IMG/VR virus record: IMGVR_UViG_2875683775_000003 | Source of the DNA: a virus | Lineage: Duplodnaviria > Heunggongvirae > Uroviricota > Caudoviricetes | Reading direction: 5' to 3' (one strand) | DNA length: 16,662 nucleotides | In this document: positions 1-5,038 of the stretch, piece by piece | How the letters are laid out: the number at the start of each line of letters is the position of its first letter | Numbering within the stretch: position 1 is the first letter of the stretch | Program-made: the position numbers and the translations under genes | The notes under the pieces: model-generated | The model's database searches: none | Seen by the model: the letters and a program-made list of their open reading frames with translations, nothing else | What the model was told of the DNA's origin: nothing

Positions 1-234
1 ATGAAATCAAAAGACACCCTAAAGTGGTTCCCTGCGCAGCTTCCTGAAGTAAGAATTATCCTAGGGGATGCTGTAGTGGAAGTAGCAAAACAGGGAAGAC
101 CTATCAATACCAGAACATTGCTTGATTACATTGAAGGAAACATAAAGAAAAAATCATGGCTGGATAACAAAGAATTATTACAAACAGCGATATCAGTTCT
201 TAAAGACAACCAAAATTTAAATGGTAAAATGTAA
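1..234 (+). CDS. ynaE: Small prophage protein of the YnaE/YdfK type (cold-shock-associated, function unknown)
   Basis: 77-aa ORF with ATG at window position 1, located next to the pinR-like gene as in my recollection of K-12 Rac. The sequence fits my memory of YnaE/YdfK but was not checked. The true N-terminus could lie beyond the window edge. Confidence 0.55.
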   Translation: MKSKDTLKWFPAQLPEVRIILGDAVVEVAKQGRPINTRTLLDYIEGNIKKKSWLDNKELLQTAISVLKDNQNLNGKM

Positions 235-550
235 TATAATAAACTTACTTTTTTATCATTTTTCCACTTTAACAACATTTTGCTCCACTTTTCCACGACC
301 AAACAACTTGAAATCTGGTTAAAATAACACGCAACACTATTCTTCTTCCTTGAGTCCGCCTGGAACTCGAAAAACAAACCGAGTTAAAGCCATTTTTCAC
401 AAAATCGATTTTGGGTCTCACCAAAATTACGGGGTTGCATACGCATTCGTTTATTTTCGAACGTGTACATACAAATATGCACAAAAATAATCAAAATTAT
501 TTTCTGAGATGCATTATGATATGAACACCAATTTCGTATAGAGTCTCACT

Positions 551-1141
551 ATGTCTCAAATTTTTGCTTACTGTCGGATATCAACGCTGGATCAGACCAC
601 CGAAAATCAACGCCGGGAAATCGAAAGTGCAGGTTTTAAAATCAAACCTCAGCAAATAATCGAAGAACACATTAGTGGCTCAGCAGCAACCAGTGAGCGT
701 CCTGGTTTTAACCGGTTGCTTGCTCGCCTGAAATGTGGTGATCAATTGATTGTGACAAAATTGGATCGCCTTGGTTGTAATGCAATGGATATCAGGAAAA
801 CAGTGGAACAACTGACCGAAACAGGTATCAGAGTGCATTGCTTAGCATTGGGGGGCATTGACCTGACCAGTCCAACAGGAAAAATGATGATGCAAGTAAT
901 TTCAGCAGTCGCTGAATTTGAACGAGACCTTTTACTTGAACGCACTCATTCCGGGATAGTAAGAGCCCGCGGCGCAGGGAAACGTTTTGGTCGACCACCT
1001 GTGTTAAATGAAGAACAGAAACAGGTGGTATTCGAACGAATTAAGTCAGGTGTAAGTATAAGTGCCATTGCCCGGGAATTCAAAACCTCGCGGCAAACCA
1101 TTTTAAGAGCCAAAGCAAAACTTCAGACACCTGACATATAA
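551..1141 (+). CDS. pinR: Serine recombinase of the resolvase/invertase family, PinR-like
   Basis: 196-aa ORF. N-terminal catalytic motif YCRISTLDQ (catalytic Ser near residue 11) and C-terminal helix-turn-helix ([17 protein letters not shown]). Length matches PinR/PinQ of E. coli cryptic prophages. Confidence 0.85.
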
Positions 1142-1238
1142 AAAATAATCTCGGTGTGAGATGCTTTACGTCTTCCAAGCCCCCTTCCTTGCCGTAAATG
1201 GAAAGATACATCTAATTATAGAATTTATATGTTTTACC

Positions 1239-1349
1239 CTACGGCAGTGCTGGCCATTCAATATCCTGTGCAGTTGACGTATCAACACGGTTCAGCAATA
1301 CCCGATACTTTTTCCATGCTTCCAGCAACGAGGTTTCTTCCTCCGTTGC
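1239..1349 (-). pseudogene. 3' remnant of a tail fibre assembly (Tfa) gene
   Basis: The last ~36 codons of the track ORF 1239..1424 read [36 protein letters not shown], which matches the conserved C-terminus of lambdoid Tfa proteins. The upstream part of that frame is unrelated, and no start codon or intact N-terminal body is present. Confidence 0.5.
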
Positions 1350-1368
1350 ATATACAGCCCACCTTTTT

Positions 1369-1662
1369 TCACCCACGATTAACCAACAGCCAGACCAGCA
1401 GACACGCCACCACCGGCACAGCAAAATCCATCAGGCTTGCCACATCCCACGCGCGCGGATCAAAACCGCCCCACCACGGCATATTCATTCGCTTGCCATG
1501 CCCGAACATTTCAATCCAGCGATATTCTGCCTGGGTATGTTCACGCGCAATGAAGAACGTACAACCGGCTATCGCTCCGTAAGCCCAGTTTCCGGTAAAA
1601 AGACCAACCAGTATCTGCGCAGCCACAGCACAAAGTGCATGAAGTAAGGGGCTTATATCCAT
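1369..1662 (-). CDS. Small hydrophobic protein with 2-3 predicted membrane spans, unknown function
   Basis: 97-aa ORF with a strong RBS (AAAGGAGG, 7 nt before the ATG), 12 nt downstream of the preceding gene's stop. Hydrophobic segments [30 protein letters not shown] and [15 protein letters not shown]. No family recognised. Confidence 0.6.
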
Positions 1663-1674
1663 TATTTCCTCCTT

Positions 1675-1953
1675 TCAGCTCCATTCCCGAAGCGGTGTTT
1701 CCAGCTCCACGACATAATCAGAGAATACAGAAACATCAAACAAGTCATCAAGAATGCGAATGTTGACAAAATAACCGTTATTCCGGATACAGACAGGTTC
1801 TCCCTCTTCAGTTACCCCTGTTTCTGTGTAGGTGAAACCAATTTCATCGACTAACAGTTTATTCTGGAGGTCTTCATCTTCCTCCCAGTCAAGAGATGAC
1901 AGGAAGGATTTAAACTCTCTGTTACCAGGAAATTTCAAAGTTAAATCTTTCAT
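1675..1953 (-). CDS. Small acidic protein translationally coupled to the tail fibre gene; possible fibre chaperone or accessory protein
   Basis: 92-aa ORF whose ATG overlaps the tail fibre stop (ATGA overlap at 1950-1953). Strong RBS AAGGAGG 5 nt upstream. Very acidic composition (DWEEDEDLQ...). No family recognised. Confidence 0.6.
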   Translation of the reverse strand: MKDLTLKFPGNREFKSFLSSLDWEEDEDLQNKLLVDEIGFTYTETGVTEEGEPVCIRNNGYFVNIRILDDLFDVSVFSDYVVELETPLREWS

Positions 1954-4175
1954 ACTGCCTCCTTGATTTGCCTGTCATTTAATTCTTTAAACCAGACTCT
2001 GAAATTTCTGATGTGTCCAAACAAATGACGCGTTCCTGCTGCGGTCTGCCCACCAAACCGGTACGATGTTGCTGTAACTCCAAATATTTTACCATTAAGG
2101 TTTGTTGTATAATTACCATTGCATATTGCATTTACTGATAAATCAGATTTAGCTCTCACACCCACAATGAACCTTTCTCCATCTGAGGAAATTTGTGGCT
2201 GAACCATTCCTACGTTGGCGCTTATCTTTCCTGTTGAAACAAACCCCAGCGATAAATAATTATCATCAATACTGTGCCCTCCAACATCAAATATCCTTGG
2301 CGCAACATTGGGCGGTGTACTCCAGTTCCTCCTTACTTCGCACAATACTGTAAAAGGCCGTGTTGACAGGTTATTCGCCGAGGGGATAGTAACCACATCA
2401 CTTGCGCGTGTTGTTGGCATTGTAGTTACAATAAATGACGATGCCGTATTGCCCAGTTCAATTTGCGGCGTCGTCATGGTTAATGTTGAGTCATCATAGA
2501 ATGGCTCATTACTTATTTTATTTGTCATATAAAAAGCACAGTTAACGGTATCAATGTCCGTATTAGCTGTATAAGTGGCCTCATAGTAGGTCCACTCGCC
2601 CTGTTGTTCAGCTTTGGCTGTTATAAGGGATGTATTACCGCTTACTGTTGCGATCCGGGTATCCAGATCAAGATAAGAGTCAGCAGAGAATGTATCTGTT
2701 CCACCAATAATAACTGAAACTCTTAACCTGCATCGTGCTTTAGCGCCTTTAACCCGGCACGAAAAAGTGAAACATTCACCACTTGCCAGCGGGAATCTGT
2801 CTGCTGCAACCACACCATGCACAGTATAGCCACCTGTTGTTCCCACTATACTTTCCGTGGGTGTCACCGTGGCATAATTGAACCCCTGTTTATCAGTGCC
2901 AAATGTTTTATTCAGTGCGGAATGAACAGTCCATGAGTCTGGTTTATTTGAGTTCCTCAGATAATTTGTCCTCTGTCCTTCAATCAATAAGCCATCGCGC
3001 TCAAATCGCGGTTCGTCAACTTCAGCAAGCTTGAGTTGGCCGGACTTATTAATATACGTTGCTGTTGAAGCACGTTTAAACTTAACAATCTTGTCGCCTG
3101 GCATTGTTATTTCATCGTCACCAATAACAATCTTTTTATAAGATGGCGAAAAACCCGTAATCATATCCAGCGAATCGTTAAACGGTATCCACACATCAGG
3201 CAGCGGCGGCACTATATTCGCACAGGGCTCTGCAGTCACTTCCGCTGCGGATTCTGCGCGGTCTGCCGCCTTTTCAGCTCGTGTCGCTGCCGACAGAGCC
3301 TCATCCTTTTTCTGCCCGGCCTTTGTTGCGTCTGCTGCGGCCTCCCGCGCTTTTGTGGTGGCGACTCCGGCATTTTCAGCGGCTGACTCTGCATTACGGC
3401 GGGAAGCCTCTTCACTGTCTGCGGAGGCTTCTTCTGACGCACGGGCATTTGTCTCTGAACGTTCTGCCGCTGTTGCTGCGTTTTGTGCGGCTGTTTTTGA
3501 AGAAGCTGCCGCTTTCGCGCTGTTACCTGCATTCGTCTCTGATGTTTTCGCCGCGTTCCTGGACGATGCCGCTGCTGTTTCTGATTTCTTTGCTGCCGCT
3601 GCGCTCTGAGAGGCGGCTTCAGCGTTGCGTGCTGCTTCTTCCACCATTGCCTCAAAACGACGCAATGCCTCCGGCATGACATCATCTTCCGTCATGGCAC
3701 CGAGAAAATCATTCAGCGTACCAGGTCTGGAACCTTCATAGACGGTAATGGTTCCGGCATGTGAAGGCGGAAAACCTTCAACCAGCAGGGTGACGCTGTA
3801 CTGGCCATACTCGACATCCATGCTGTAACGCCCGGCTTCATCCGGATTTTCAGAGGCTACCGTGTTCACCAGTACCGTGGTGCTGTTACGCTTTGCCTTC
3901 AGTTGAATAGTGCAGTTCTGTATTGGTTTTCCCGCACCATCTTTCAGCACACCTGAGATTTTTACTGCTGCCATATTCGGAGCTGACGGCCCCGGTACGA
4001 TATCTTCGGTTTTCGCCTCAGGCGCAACTGGCGCGGTTACCGTCTGATCTTTTGCTGCGGCGTCAGCTTTTGCGTTTTTTGCTACCGCAGGGATAAAACC
4101 TACCTGCTCACGGGATACAATATCCAGGGCGGTATAAATAGTCGGGATCAACCCGGTCAGGGTATTTCCAGCCAT
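1950..4175 (-). CDS. Side tail fibre protein: lambdoid Stf-like N-terminus with a divergent C-terminal receptor-binding region
   Basis: 741 aa from ATG at 4175 (RBS AAGGAA 9 nt upstream); the track ORF start at 4268 is upstream read-through. The N-terminal ~330 aa is Stf-like (MAGNTLTGLIPTIYTALD... followed by an Ala/Ser/Glu-rich coiled-coil repeat). The C-terminal ~400 aa (from ...PLPDVWIPFNDSLD... to ...HIRNFRVWFKELNDRQIKEAV) is unlike the K-12 StfR tip I recall. Confidence 0.85.
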   Translation of the reverse strand: MAGNTLTGLIPTIYTALDIVSREQVGFIPAVAKNAKADAAAKDQTVTAPVAPEAKTEDIVPGPSAPNMAAVKISGVLKDGAGKPIQNCTIQLKAKRNSTTVLVNTVASENPDEAGRYSMDVEYGQYSVTLLVEGFPPSHAGTITVYEGSRPGTLNDFLGAMTEDDVMPEALRRFEAMVEEAARNAEAASQSAAAAKKSETAAASSRNAAKTSETNAGNSAKAAASSKTAAQNAATAAERSETNARASEEASADSEEASRRNAESAAENAGVATTKAREAAADATKAGQKKDEALSAATRAEKAADRAESAAEVTAEPCANIVPPLPDVWIPFNDSLDMITGFSPSYKKIVIGDDEITMPGDKIVKFKRASTATYINKSGQLKLAEVDEPRFERDGLLIEGQRTNYLRNSNKPDSWTVHSALNKTFGTDKQGFNYATVTPTESIVGTTGGYTVHGVVAADRFPLASGECFTFSCRVKGAKARCRLRVSVIIGGTDTFSADSYLDLDTRIATVSGNTSLITAKAEQQGEWTYYEATYTANTDIDTVNCAFYMTNKISNEPFYDDSTLTMTTPQIELGNTASSFIVTTMPTTRASDVVTIPSANNLSTRPFTVLCEVRRNWSTPPNVAPRIFDVGGHSIDDNYLSLGFVSTGKISANVGMVQPQISSDGERFIVGVRAKSDLSVNAICNGNYTTNLNGKIFGVTATSYRFGGQTAAGTRHLFGHIRNFRVWFKELNDRQIKEAV

Positions 4176-4273
4176 AATTAAATATTCCTTAAAAATTTGC
4201 GTAATTGTGAATAGATGGAGTAATGAGCTATCCAGCCCTGACACCAGCTCCCATCCGGAAGCTGACAAATGTG

Positions 4274-5038
4274 TTAATCAACAATTGTGATACCGTCTTT
4301 CAATGCGTTTTGCTTACCTGCAACATCCAGTGCATCAAAAGCAGAGCGTTTCATCGTTTTCTGACCAATATCATGCTGTGTCGGACGGGAGCCGCCGCCA
4401 TTGTTGCCACTGGCTTTCAGGATGTAGTCTTTCTGAGGGTAATTTTCGACGAGGAACTCCAGCGCCTCATCAAACTGCGCCAGTTCGCCAGGCTTCGCGC
4501 GGGAATAAATTTTGTTGCCGGAAGCGTCATAAGCAACGATCTTCCCTTCTTCCACTTTGAATGCCTGCCCGAAGCGGGCTTGTAATAAATCTGCCGGGAT
4601 CGCAATTTTATCGGCAATATATTTTGAACCCGCAAAACTACCGCCAATCATAGAATCGTAAAGCTGCGTCTCCAGCATCTGAGAGCGTTGCTTTTCTTCA
4701 TCTAATTGCTGCTGAAAATTTTTCGTAATTTCTGCCTTAACCTGGTCAACCTGTCCCGCATCGATCAGCTTTTTCTGGTCGATTTTTGACAGCATTTCCA
4801 GTGCCTCGATCGCCTTCTTCGGGTCTTCGATAGCGGCAAACTTAGCCAGTTTTTCCTCTGCAGCTTCTTTAGCCAGGCGATGATTTTTTGCCTCGCCATT
4901 AAGCTCTGTAATTTTTTTTATCGCCAGCGGTGCATCGAAGCCGATTTCTTTACCATCGTCGTGCACATAAACTGGCAGGCCAGCAGTATCAATTTCTGCG
5001 TATTGTTTTCCGTTAATCTCGACCGTTTTCAGTTTCAT
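4274..5038 (-). CDS. Phage protein of unknown function, coiled-coil rich with a Gly-rich C-terminal segment
   Basis: 254 aa from ATG at 5038 (MKLKTVEINGKQYAEID...). The track ORF start at 5110 is a GTG that overlaps a terminator hairpin and is unlikely to be used. Lys/Glu/Ala-rich heptad-like middle region. Occupies the position where K-12 Rac carries the ydaY pseudogene (recollection). Confidence 0.6.
   Translation of the reverse strand: MKLKTVEINGKQYAEIDTAGLPVYVHDDGKEIGFDAPLAIKKITELNGEAKNHRLAKEAAEEKLAKFAAIEDPKKAIEALEMLSKIDQKKLIDAGQVDQVKAEITKNFQQQLDEEKQRSQMLETQLYDSMIGGSFAGSKYIADKIAIPADLLQARFGQAFKVEEGKIVAYDASGNKIYSRAKPGELAQFDEALEFLVENYPQKDYILKASGNNGGGSRPTQHDIGQKTMKRSAFDALDVAGKQNALKDGITIVD

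Follow-up and report, generated by a model that had tools for sequence, protein, structure and literature searches.

Two separate small genes behind the side tail fibre gene of the Rac prophage of Escherichia coli B: a likely partner of lectin-headed fibre tips and a likely envelope-directed cargo gene

Introduction

Tfa, gpU and gpG, the Caudo_TAP proteins (PF02413) of phages lambda, Mu and P2, are encoded directly downstream of a tail fibre gene, are co-expressed with the fibre and are swapped together with its tip. Here, we compare with these and other fibre-associated systems two small genes in a stretch of viral DNA of 16,662 nucleotides (IMG/VR virus record IMGVR_UViG_2875683775_000003, hereafter the window), where genes for a protein of 92 residues (p92) and a protein of 97 residues (p97) follow the side tail fibre gene stf. 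p92 shares these three features of organisation with the Tfa proteins, and in the window its cassette stands in the place of tfa, of which a stub remains. It differs in having no sequence match to Caudo_TAP and a predicted fold with no informative structural match, in being about half the size of lambda Tfa (92 residues against about 194), and in accompanying a fibre tip with a lectin- or LamG-like head, not the classical Tfa-dependent tip.

Another solution to folding the fibre end is found in the same lateral fibre loci of T5-like and T1-like phages, where S74 intramolecular chaperones are described (PMC4728585, PMC12143355). Unlike the S74 domains of T5 pb1, K1F endosialidase and DT57C LtfA/LtfB, p92 is a separate polypeptide, and no fused version was found among the 120 clusters listed of the 295 retrieved with its profile. 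The Stf of the window ends in a LamG-like domain, not in S74; S74-type domains sit, as judged by eye, on a second fibre that in some loci comes next after p92. The fibres treated in the DT57C LtfA/LtfB papers are of the S74 type and have no p92 (PMC4728585). Closer to the window are two proteins of the BASEL phages, IrisVonRoten gp22 and EmilHeitz RBP_10 'D69', whose C-terminal parts are full-length homologues of the distal part of Stf (33-43% identity) and are each followed by a p92 homologue. In the available text of PMC11990801 and PMC12143355, the head that is homologous to the Stf tip is called galectin-like or lectin-like and is described only as a candidate receptor-binding domain, and the small gene is not discussed; both phages are virulent and lack p97.

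The natural comparison for p97 is with phage cargo genes such as P2 Z/fun, P22 gtrABC, Sf6 oac, phi80/N15 cor, T5 llp and HK97 gp15, which it resembles in position and in encoding a small envelope protein. The matching positions are a Z/fun-equivalent site in phage phiHAP-1, the interval between tailspike and integrase genes where P22-like phages keep seroconversion genes, a site beside the O-antigen acetylase gene oafA in phage 611R6, and the end of the lambdoid fibre module. p97 differs from the cargo genes in being unrelated to any Pfam, NCBIfam or PADLOC family, in lying on the late-gene strand, translationally coupled and with no promoter found in a simple scan, and in occurring also at conserved chromosomal sites and in several copies per genome.

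Results

Two coupled genes in the Rac prophage of REL606

The reading that we favour, with somewhat better than even confidence, is that p92 and p97 are two separate modules lying side by side, in which p92 would be a factor for the fibre tip and p97 an independent cargo gene acting at the envelope. That they are independent follows from their contrasting GC contents, from their contrasting levels of identity between phages, from a gene that is often inserted between them, and from virulent phages that carry p92 without p97; the numbers are given below.

Bases 1-4300 of the window are 100% identical to positions 1421531-1425830 of E. coli B REL606 (NC_012967.1), reverse strand, and according to the RefSeq annotation around them the 16.6-kb window covers this strain's defective Rac prophage, from ydfK to intR. 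The RefSeq gene order on the minus strand is stf, p92, p97 and a tfa pseudogene, followed on the plus strand by pinR and ydfK. In the NCBI annotation of REL606 both p92 (WP_000654171.1, 92 residues) and p97 (WP_000355360.1, 97 residues) are hypothetical proteins. The features of this part of the window are:

1950-3974, minus strand: stf, side tail fibre gene (NCBI start at 3974)
3195-3974, minus strand: N-terminal, lambda-Stf-like part of Stf, phage_tail_N followed by an alanine-rich coiled region (Pfam PF08400, E=1e-66; REL606 annotation)
1953-3194, minus strand: distal module of Stf, about 414 residues, a lectin-like or GTA-head-spike-like beta-sandwich followed by a LamG-like C-terminal head (NCBIfam GTA_spike_fiber, E=4.5e-18; phrog_1419, E=3e-297)
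1958-1964, minus strand: Shine-Dalgarno sequence of p92, AAGGAGG, within the 3' end of stf (read from the sequence)
1675-1953, minus strand: p92, acidic alpha+beta protein of 92 residues, PHROG 1361; its start overlaps the stf stop
1668-1674, minus strand: Shine-Dalgarno sequence of p97, AAGGAGG, in the spacer between p92 and p97 (read from the sequence)
1369-1662, minus strand: p97, three-helix membrane protein of 97 residues, PHROG 1443, UniRef name Ybl63 (profile match; AlphaFold2)
1239-1349, minus strand: C-terminal remnant of Tfa, 36 residues, pseudogene (Pfam Caudo_TAP, E=3e-16; RefSeq pseudogene)
551-1141, plus strand: pinR, serine invertase, the usual neighbour of stf-tfa (Pfam Resolvase and HTH_7; RefSeq)

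The original prediction, made from the letters of the window, described strong Shine-Dalgarno sites and tight coupling to stf through an ATGA overlap and a 12-nucleotide gap, and all of these coordinates hold on the minus strand. The TGA that ends stf (1952-1950) overlaps the ATG with which p92 begins (1953-1951), and the first AAGGAGG (1964-1958) lies 4 nucleotides upstream of this ATG. p92 stops at 1677-1675, a gap of 12 nucleotides follows (1663-1674), and the second AAGGAGG (1674-1668) lies 5 nucleotides upstream of the p97 start codon (ATG, 1662-1660). The tfa remnant begins about 20 nucleotides past the p97 stop codon (TGA, 1369-1371).

Neither p92 nor p97 is a chance open reading frame, since both match PHROG families over their full length, have homologues numbering in the hundreds and show low ratios of nonsynonymous to synonymous substitution (dN/dS). 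Residues 1-91 of p92 match positions 1-91 of the 92 in phrog_1361 (E=4e-39), and residues 1-96 of p97 match positions 1-96 of the 97 in phrog_1443 (E=2.4e-58). Against diverged alleles dN/dS is 0.16-0.35 across both genes (0.27-0.35 for p92), which marks them as real genes under purifying selection.

Both genes had been proposed to be uncharacterised and unlike Tfa, and the searches bear this out. Neither protein has a match to a characterised family in Pfam, NCBIfam, PADLOC or PDB: p92, p97 and 32 relatives of p97 gave sub-threshold noise only in the first three (LUD_dom, PhoR, E about 0.03), and PADLOC-DB returned zero families at E<=1 for p92 and p97. Caudo_TAP likewise has no match to either protein at E<=1, against E=3e-16 for the adjoining 36-residue remnant, and the PHROG tail-fibre-assembly families match that remnant and neither p92 nor p97. 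The remote-homology check that had been suggested gave full-length matches to PHROG families of unknown function and brought no informative relative: PDB sequence searches with the fibre module and with profiles of p92 and p97 returned nothing, and a search of BFVD with the p92 fold returned uncharacterised small phage proteins only. p92 and p97 are thus already catalogued as proteins of unknown function, and literature searches by accession, PHROG identifier or gene name found no relevant paper on p92 or p97/Ybl63; a base-editing preprint from Eligo proved to have no bearing on them.

The predicted nature of the two proteins was also borne out. p92 is acidic (isoelectric point 4.08, 21 D+E against 8 K+R), has no hydrophobic segment and is modelled by AlphaFold2 as a soluble alpha+beta fold with a predicted local distance difference test score (pLDDT) of 86. 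p97 has a grand average of hydropathy of +0.53 and three helices in its AlphaFold2 model, in agreement with a small multi-span membrane protein. Both models were built as single chains with family alignments.

p92 accompanies one class of fibre tip

Homologues of p92 were found by tblastn in 144 phage records, and nearly all of the annotated records listed have an adjacent gene annotated as fibre or tail. The listed carriers include the T1-like Drexlerviridae PeterMerian, KarlJaspers, tonn and tunus, the T5-like Demerecviridae IrisVonRoten, EC104 and VSe12, and Dhillonvirus. Open reading frames around homologues were mapped with a filter on GC content at third codon positions. In all loci inspected, lambdoid, T1-like, T5-like and rV5-like, p92 starts on or just past the stop codon of a lateral fibre gene, and wherever a locus was opened the whole C-terminal part (about 414 residues) of the preceding fibre aligns to the Stf of the window at 33-67% identity. 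Some small open reading frames missed by tblastn proved to be p92 homologues by hhalign, namely those of the rV5-like myovirus EmilHeitz (probability 98.2%), the T5-like Lindwurm (98.3%) and KarlJaspers (99.9%). The profile search with p92 returned 295 clusters, and the 120 listed are 92-150 residues long, nearly all of them 92-93. The distal module of Stf, for its part, has full-length homologues at 33-99% identity in 218 phage records (tblastn with the last 414 residues).

The same trio of stf, p92 and p97, in the same arrangement, is present in phage 21 (CPT_21_22, 23 and 24), in the infant-gut lambdoid phages Lambda_ev and 1H12, and in PhiR47_2. To extend this picture to prophages we used 80 E. 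coli loci from IMG/VR that were chosen because they contain p97. tblastn detects p92 in 74 of them. Five others carry a fibre of this type without a tblastn match to p92, and the two of these that were opened (L060 and L076) hold, by eye, a divergent version of 89 residues (MRDITLRF...GFFVNMRI...RTWA). Counting all five, the tip is followed by a p92-like open reading frame in 79/80 loci, so that the predicted co-occurrence of the pair with this tip is seen here as well as in phage 21 and the Lambda_ev phages. The sole locus with neither fibre module nor p92 upstream (L085, 5227-5924) has an IS1-like insertion with InsA/InsB-like open reading frames directly upstream of p97.

p92 is most likely the dedicated partner gene of this class of lectin-like/LamG-like-headed fibre tips. 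The assignment of p92 to a single tip class across temperate and virulent phages, which appears to be new, is drawn from synteny. The sequences also suggest that p92 is not matched to receptor specificity.

p97 belongs to a wide family and stands behind diverse receptor-binding genes

The p97 family is much wider than that of p92. It comprises 577 clusters at 90% identity, including sequences from Comamonas, Aeromonas, Salmonella, Leclercia and Citrobacter, and 437 clusters at 50% identity; the 150 of these that are listed are stand-alone proteins of 58-146 residues, with no fusions among them. p97 is present in 1,908 of 5,426 complete E. coli genomes (35%); the median carrier has 2 copies and the maximum is 7. 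Every match listed is annotated 'hypothetical protein', the exact sequence carries the name Ybl63 in UniRef, and the phage 21 copy is annotated 'putative membrane protein'. The Kapi1 protein 'hyp24' was considered as a homologue and rejected, being a different open reading frame of 34 residues.

AlphaFold2 models p97 with a pLDDT of 94 and helices at residues 4-23, 26-53 and 74-96, whereas the annotators of phage 21 give two transmembrane domains with both termini inside. At about 30% identity H8, R40, E41, W72 and P83 are invariant and G29, Q44, A45, E46 and D79 nearly so, and the core motif reads (A/G)RE(H)xQAEYRWI...MPWWGGF. If the helices pack antiparallel, as the model predicts, H8, R40/E41, Q44/E46 and D79 would form a polar cluster on one membrane face, with the Trp-rich loop on the same face. 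Residues 31-34 (I-A-G-C) resemble a lipobox, and Cys34 is invariant in close relatives. p97 is probably not a lipoprotein, since conservation of Cys34 is lost in distant members and a basic n-region is missing from the N-terminus; these marks of a Cor/Llp-type lipoprotein are therefore lacking in p97. Nor did p97 and its 32 relatives match the seroconversion families GtrA/GtrB and OafA/Oac in Pfam or NCBIfam, with which p97 has position alone in common.

In phages and prophages p97 follows receptor-binding genes of several kinds. In the P22-like JEP4 the tailspike stop and the p97 start overlap, with the integrase gene next in line, and in phage 611R6 the tailspike gene is followed in turn by the gene for the O-antigen acetylase OafA, a fragment, p97 and the integrase gene. 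In the P2-like phiHAP-1 p97 has tfa on one side and the sheath gene FI on the other, a position that from the gene order of P2 we take to be the Z/fun slot. The Z/fun locus is a hotspot at which tail fibre and tfa genes are also swapped (preprint 10.1101/2024.10.15.618418). Further copies stand behind gpJ-like proteins of about 1,000-1,900 residues or more in Comamonas, Acidovorax and Pantoea prophages and, by eye, behind a beta-helix tailspike in a Leclercia prophage. Escherichia phage HC6 and its relatives have an unannotated partial p97-like sequence (L148, 3001-3162; residues 41-94, 43% identity) directly past their last large gene, which is presumably a tail gene; the sequence is a truncated variant or else a small gene that annotation missed.

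p97 homologues also occupy chromosomal sites: between the genes for pirin and RIO1 in four Aeromonas loci (a fifth shares the RIO1 neighbour), near apparent urea-transporter genes in Leclercia (by eye), and beside ligA (two cases) or pnp in metagenome-assembled genomes of Pseudomonadota, including alphaproteobacteria. The sites are conserved within Aeromonas and within Leclercia. The neighbours of the non-phage loci are heterogeneous and were mostly assigned by eye, and no operon partner emerged among them. In Silvania confinis (L105, 3779-5771) the chromosomal homologue adjoins an AAA-ATPase and HNH-nuclease pair that is Septu-like by eye. In a Sphingomicrobium metagenome-assembled genome (L130, 5941-7635) a homologue of 127 residues ends 4 nucleotides before a methyltransferase of the cyclopropane-fatty-acyl-phospholipid-synthase type (by eye), the only tight, same-strand, annotatable neighbour noticed in the non-phage contexts; this pairing might hint at a link between p97 and membrane lipids.

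p92 and p97 are independent of each other

GC content sets the two genes apart. It is 42.6% in the distal module of Stf and 40.9% in p92, against 53.4% in p97 and 55.5% in the N-terminal part of Stf. Between phage 21 and the window the distal module is 42%, p92 91% and p97 100% identical, and overall p97 remains 93-100% identical while the distal module falls to 42% and p92 to 48-50%. Another fibre gene, of 234 or 346 residues, splits p92 from p97 in 32/80 IMG/VR loci, and p97 is absent from five virulent-phage loci that have both the tip and p92. The intervening fibre, which spans 227-346 residues (examples are L087, 4918-5958; L089, 5286-5990; and L060, 5307-5990), begins MATSTVIP... or MVTKTVIP... 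and ends, by eye, in a peptidase-S74-like domain of the intramolecular-chaperone type. Proteins of 225-231 residues at the equivalent position in T1-like BASEL phages, likened to it by position alone, are annotated 'putative lateral tail fiber chaperone'.

These data separate the original prediction of a fibre factor together with a cargo gene into a part that stands and a part that does not. p92 tracks the tip and p97 is separable, occurring behind diverse receptor-binding genes, and the two do not form a functional pair. The idea that they work as a single two-component system, such as a membrane toxin and its acidic antitoxin or a pair for defence, can appeal to their adjacency with 12-nucleotide spacing and to the combination of one acidic soluble protein with one small membrane protein. 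It is strongly disfavoured and very improbable, given that p92 and the tip occur without p97 in virulent phages, that p97 occurs without p92 after tailspike, tfa and gpJ-like genes in P22-like, P2-like and gpJ-type prophages and at chromosomal sites, that an extra gene often lies between the two, that their GC contents differ and that PADLOC gave no matches. What did hold is that neither protein belongs to a characterised family and that both genes are found with this tip in other genomes.

Discussion

A proposed fibre-end factor and its rivals

We infer the biochemical roles of p92 and p97 from these arrangements. The tip and p92 would constitute a two-gene, low-GC cassette that moves among lambdoid prophages, the 108-kb phage PhiR41_1 and virulent phages of the T1-like, T5-like, Dhillonvirus and rV5-like groups. 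With its start overlapping or abutting the fibre stop, p92 would be made together with the fibre, and its most likely role is that of a cytoplasmic assembly or maturation factor for the fibre end. It would then be a non-Tfa chaperone, which might remain attached to the fibre as a small accessory subunit. p92 would thereby fill the place that Tfa has behind the classical fibres of lambda, Mu and P2, and in the window the cassette in effect stands in for the end of stf and for the N-terminal portion of tfa, only the last 36 tfa codons being left. A role with the fibre itself is suggested by the strictly kept gene order and the translational coupling, both seen in at least five phage lineages, and by the retention of p92 in virulent phages, which need no lysogeny genes. 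We prefer a non-Tfa assembly or maturation factor because the cassette occupies the place of tfa, with only the 36-codon stub remaining.

Several observations weigh against these assignments. The divergence of p92 does not track the variable middle of the fibre: in KarlJaspers this middle is 80-90% identical and p92 only 48%, and phage 21 differs in the middle yet has a p92 that is 91% identical, with a C-terminal fibre end that is more similar. If p92 is a chaperone, it would for this reason serve a conserved part of the fibre. The linkage of p92 to the conserved fibre C-terminus could equally reflect mere adjacency, and co-variation with fibre segments is uninformative because linkage and interaction are inseparable in such mosaics. 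Structure searches give no informative relative of p92, and the predicted lectin-like beta-sandwich head is, to our knowledge, a fold with no known separate chaperone requirement. For p97 the topology, and with it the side on which the conserved loop lies, is ambiguous, charge counts being indecisive. A simple scan of the minus strand from 1100 to 2300 found no sigma-70-like promoter or terminator, and in every phage context seen the translation of p97 is coupled to that of late genes, so that its time of action may be late infection, not lysogeny. p97 relatives occur in Aeromonas jumbo phages of about 235 kb and at the conserved chromosomal loci, and its function may therefore exceed an anti-phage one. 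The original prediction had offered superinfection exclusion as a possible role, and the median of 2 and maximum of 7 copies in carrier genomes speak against p97 excluding phages like its own. More generally, the roles proposed for both proteins are derived from sequence comparison and modelling.

A serious rival for p92, if an improbable one, is that, instead of being a chaperone, it serves as a structural adaptor through which a second, distal fibre joins the lectin-headed one to give a branched fibre. A second fibre gene lies directly past p92 in IrisVonRoten (gp24, 574 residues), Lindwurm (586 residues) and PeterMerian and KarlJaspers (225-231 residues), and the second fibre found in 32/80 E. 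coli prophage loci points the same way. In the available text the BASEL authors label IrisVonRoten gp23 'tail fiber protein' and model a distal T-shaped fibre on the proximal gp22, the Stf homologue. Against an adaptor, the same text, as far as it covers gp22 and gp24, makes no mention of the small protein, and p92 is intact and under purifying selection without a second fibre in the window, in phage 21, in the Lambda_ev phages and in 42/80 IMG/VR loci. Rather less probable is that p92 acts transiently as a cap or inhibitor, covering the lectin-like head or a putative enzymatic site in the producing cell or on fresh virions. Such a p92 would stop fibres from binding host glycan precursors or debris. 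The strong acidity and small size of p92 and its co-translation with a glycan-binding head would fit, and for Alteromonas phages Gonzalez-Serrano et al. 2023, cited in PMC11990801, proposed 'chaperone caps' at the tips of fibres. The fold of p92 matches nothing above noise level, however, and p92 does not co-vary with the variable receptor-binding region. The assembly or maturation factor remains the role that we prefer for p92.

A probable envelope-directed cargo gene

p97 would be a small inner-membrane protein from a wider proteobacterial family that is placed as the last gene behind any receptor-binding gene and that acts on the host envelope, not on the fibre. It might alter or shield a surface or inner-membrane component that phages use for entry, or alternatively protect the infected cell or the progeny late in infection. 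A host-directed role at the envelope is favoured over one in fibre assembly because of its position in the slots of exclusion and seroconversion genes, its independence of the fibre and its chromosomal homologues, and its differing GC content and the positional analogy favour cargo status. p97 is thus most likely an independent cargo of receptor-binding modules that acts at the envelope. p97 is at most a candidate for the moron first suggested, and its expression in the lysogen is unproven, p97 having shown no promoter of its own in the scan and being coupled translationally to late genes elsewhere too.

It is doubtful that p97 instead helps virion assembly or lysis, as a membrane-bound maturation factor of fibres or tailspikes, a holin or an antiholin. 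Coupling to late tail genes everywhere and the lack of its own promoter in our scan would suit such a helper, as would three helices in about 100 residues, which are like those of class I holins, and a Comamonas prophage in which p97 lies directly before genes that appear from their translations to be a lysis cassette. Against this, virulent phages build the same fibre without p97, p97 is found at conserved non-phage chromosomal loci, and in lambdoid and P22-like phages a long distance separates it from the lysis genes; both phage 21 and Rac possess such genes of their own. Moreover, p97 has no holin match in Pfam, and its C-terminus is just 'NRG', not the long, highly charged tail of holins. 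A bolder proposal can also be made, which we put forward tentatively and consider possible without being probable. p92 would found a hitherto unrecognised assembly or accessory family for lectin-/LamG-headed lateral fibres, common to temperate and virulent coliphages. p97/Ybl63 would, independently of this, be a new kind of inner-membrane effector with a conserved His/Arg-Glu/Asp site, which phages would keep behind receptor-binding genes so as to remodel or shield the envelope; as a determinant of superinfection exclusion or surface conversion it would be found in roughly a third of E. coli genomes.

Lectin-headed lateral fibres are common in T1-like, T5-like, rV5-like and lambdoid coliphages and are targets of host-range engineering. 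If p92 is needed for their assembly, fibre swaps and chimeras must carry p92, just as Tfa must accompany lambda or P2 tips. p97/Ybl63, as noted above for the 35% of complete genomes that have it, often in multiple copies, is among the commonest unannotated genes of E. coli prophages; it occupies slots of exclusion and seroconversion genes, its polar motif is strongly conserved, and it has no family assignment. Its recognition as a very common putative cargo beside receptor-binding genes, with a conserved polar site, is to be counted as new.

Exchange of the cassette and neighbouring genes

The locus shows how a defective prophage stores an exchangeable receptor-binding cassette between conserved stf and tfa arms. 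The left arm of the cassette is the conserved N-terminal part of stf and the right arm is the C-terminal stub of tfa; between them lie the distal module of Stf, which makes up the cassette's left half, p92, the optional second fibre and p97. The N-terminal part of Stf keeps 95-96% identity in phage 21 and in Lambda_2E9, two phages with unlike tips. On the right, the 36-residue Tfa stub is found past p97, with the same short spacing, in most IMG/VR E. coli loci that have more than about 100 bases of downstream DNA, and it probably serves as the right homology arm for cassette exchange. Lambda has been shown by experiment to recombine with the Rac prophage of K-12, with crossovers in just these regions of homology within stf and tfa (De Paepe et al. 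2014, PMC3945230), which makes it plausible that the Rac remnant of REL606 could donate its cassette to infecting lambdoid phages.

In phage 21 and Lambda_2E9 the Tfa remnant is trimmed to about 20 residues before sitABCD. This iron/manganese ABC transporter operon lies directly past p97, on the opposite strand, in phage 21 (L002, 536-3985) and in the Lambda_ev phages (L005, 1-2985), and is a sizeable fitness cargo in functional lambdoid phages. At the other end of the locus, the open frame of stf reaches beyond the NCBI start, in the upstream direction, as far as a TTG at 4268 (minus strand, window 3975-4268). The roughly 98 extra codons match the major head protein family phrog_283 (E=1.5e-15, residues 34-104), and the extension looks like a deletion joint that fused the remnant of a capsid gene to stf in this defective Rac prophage.

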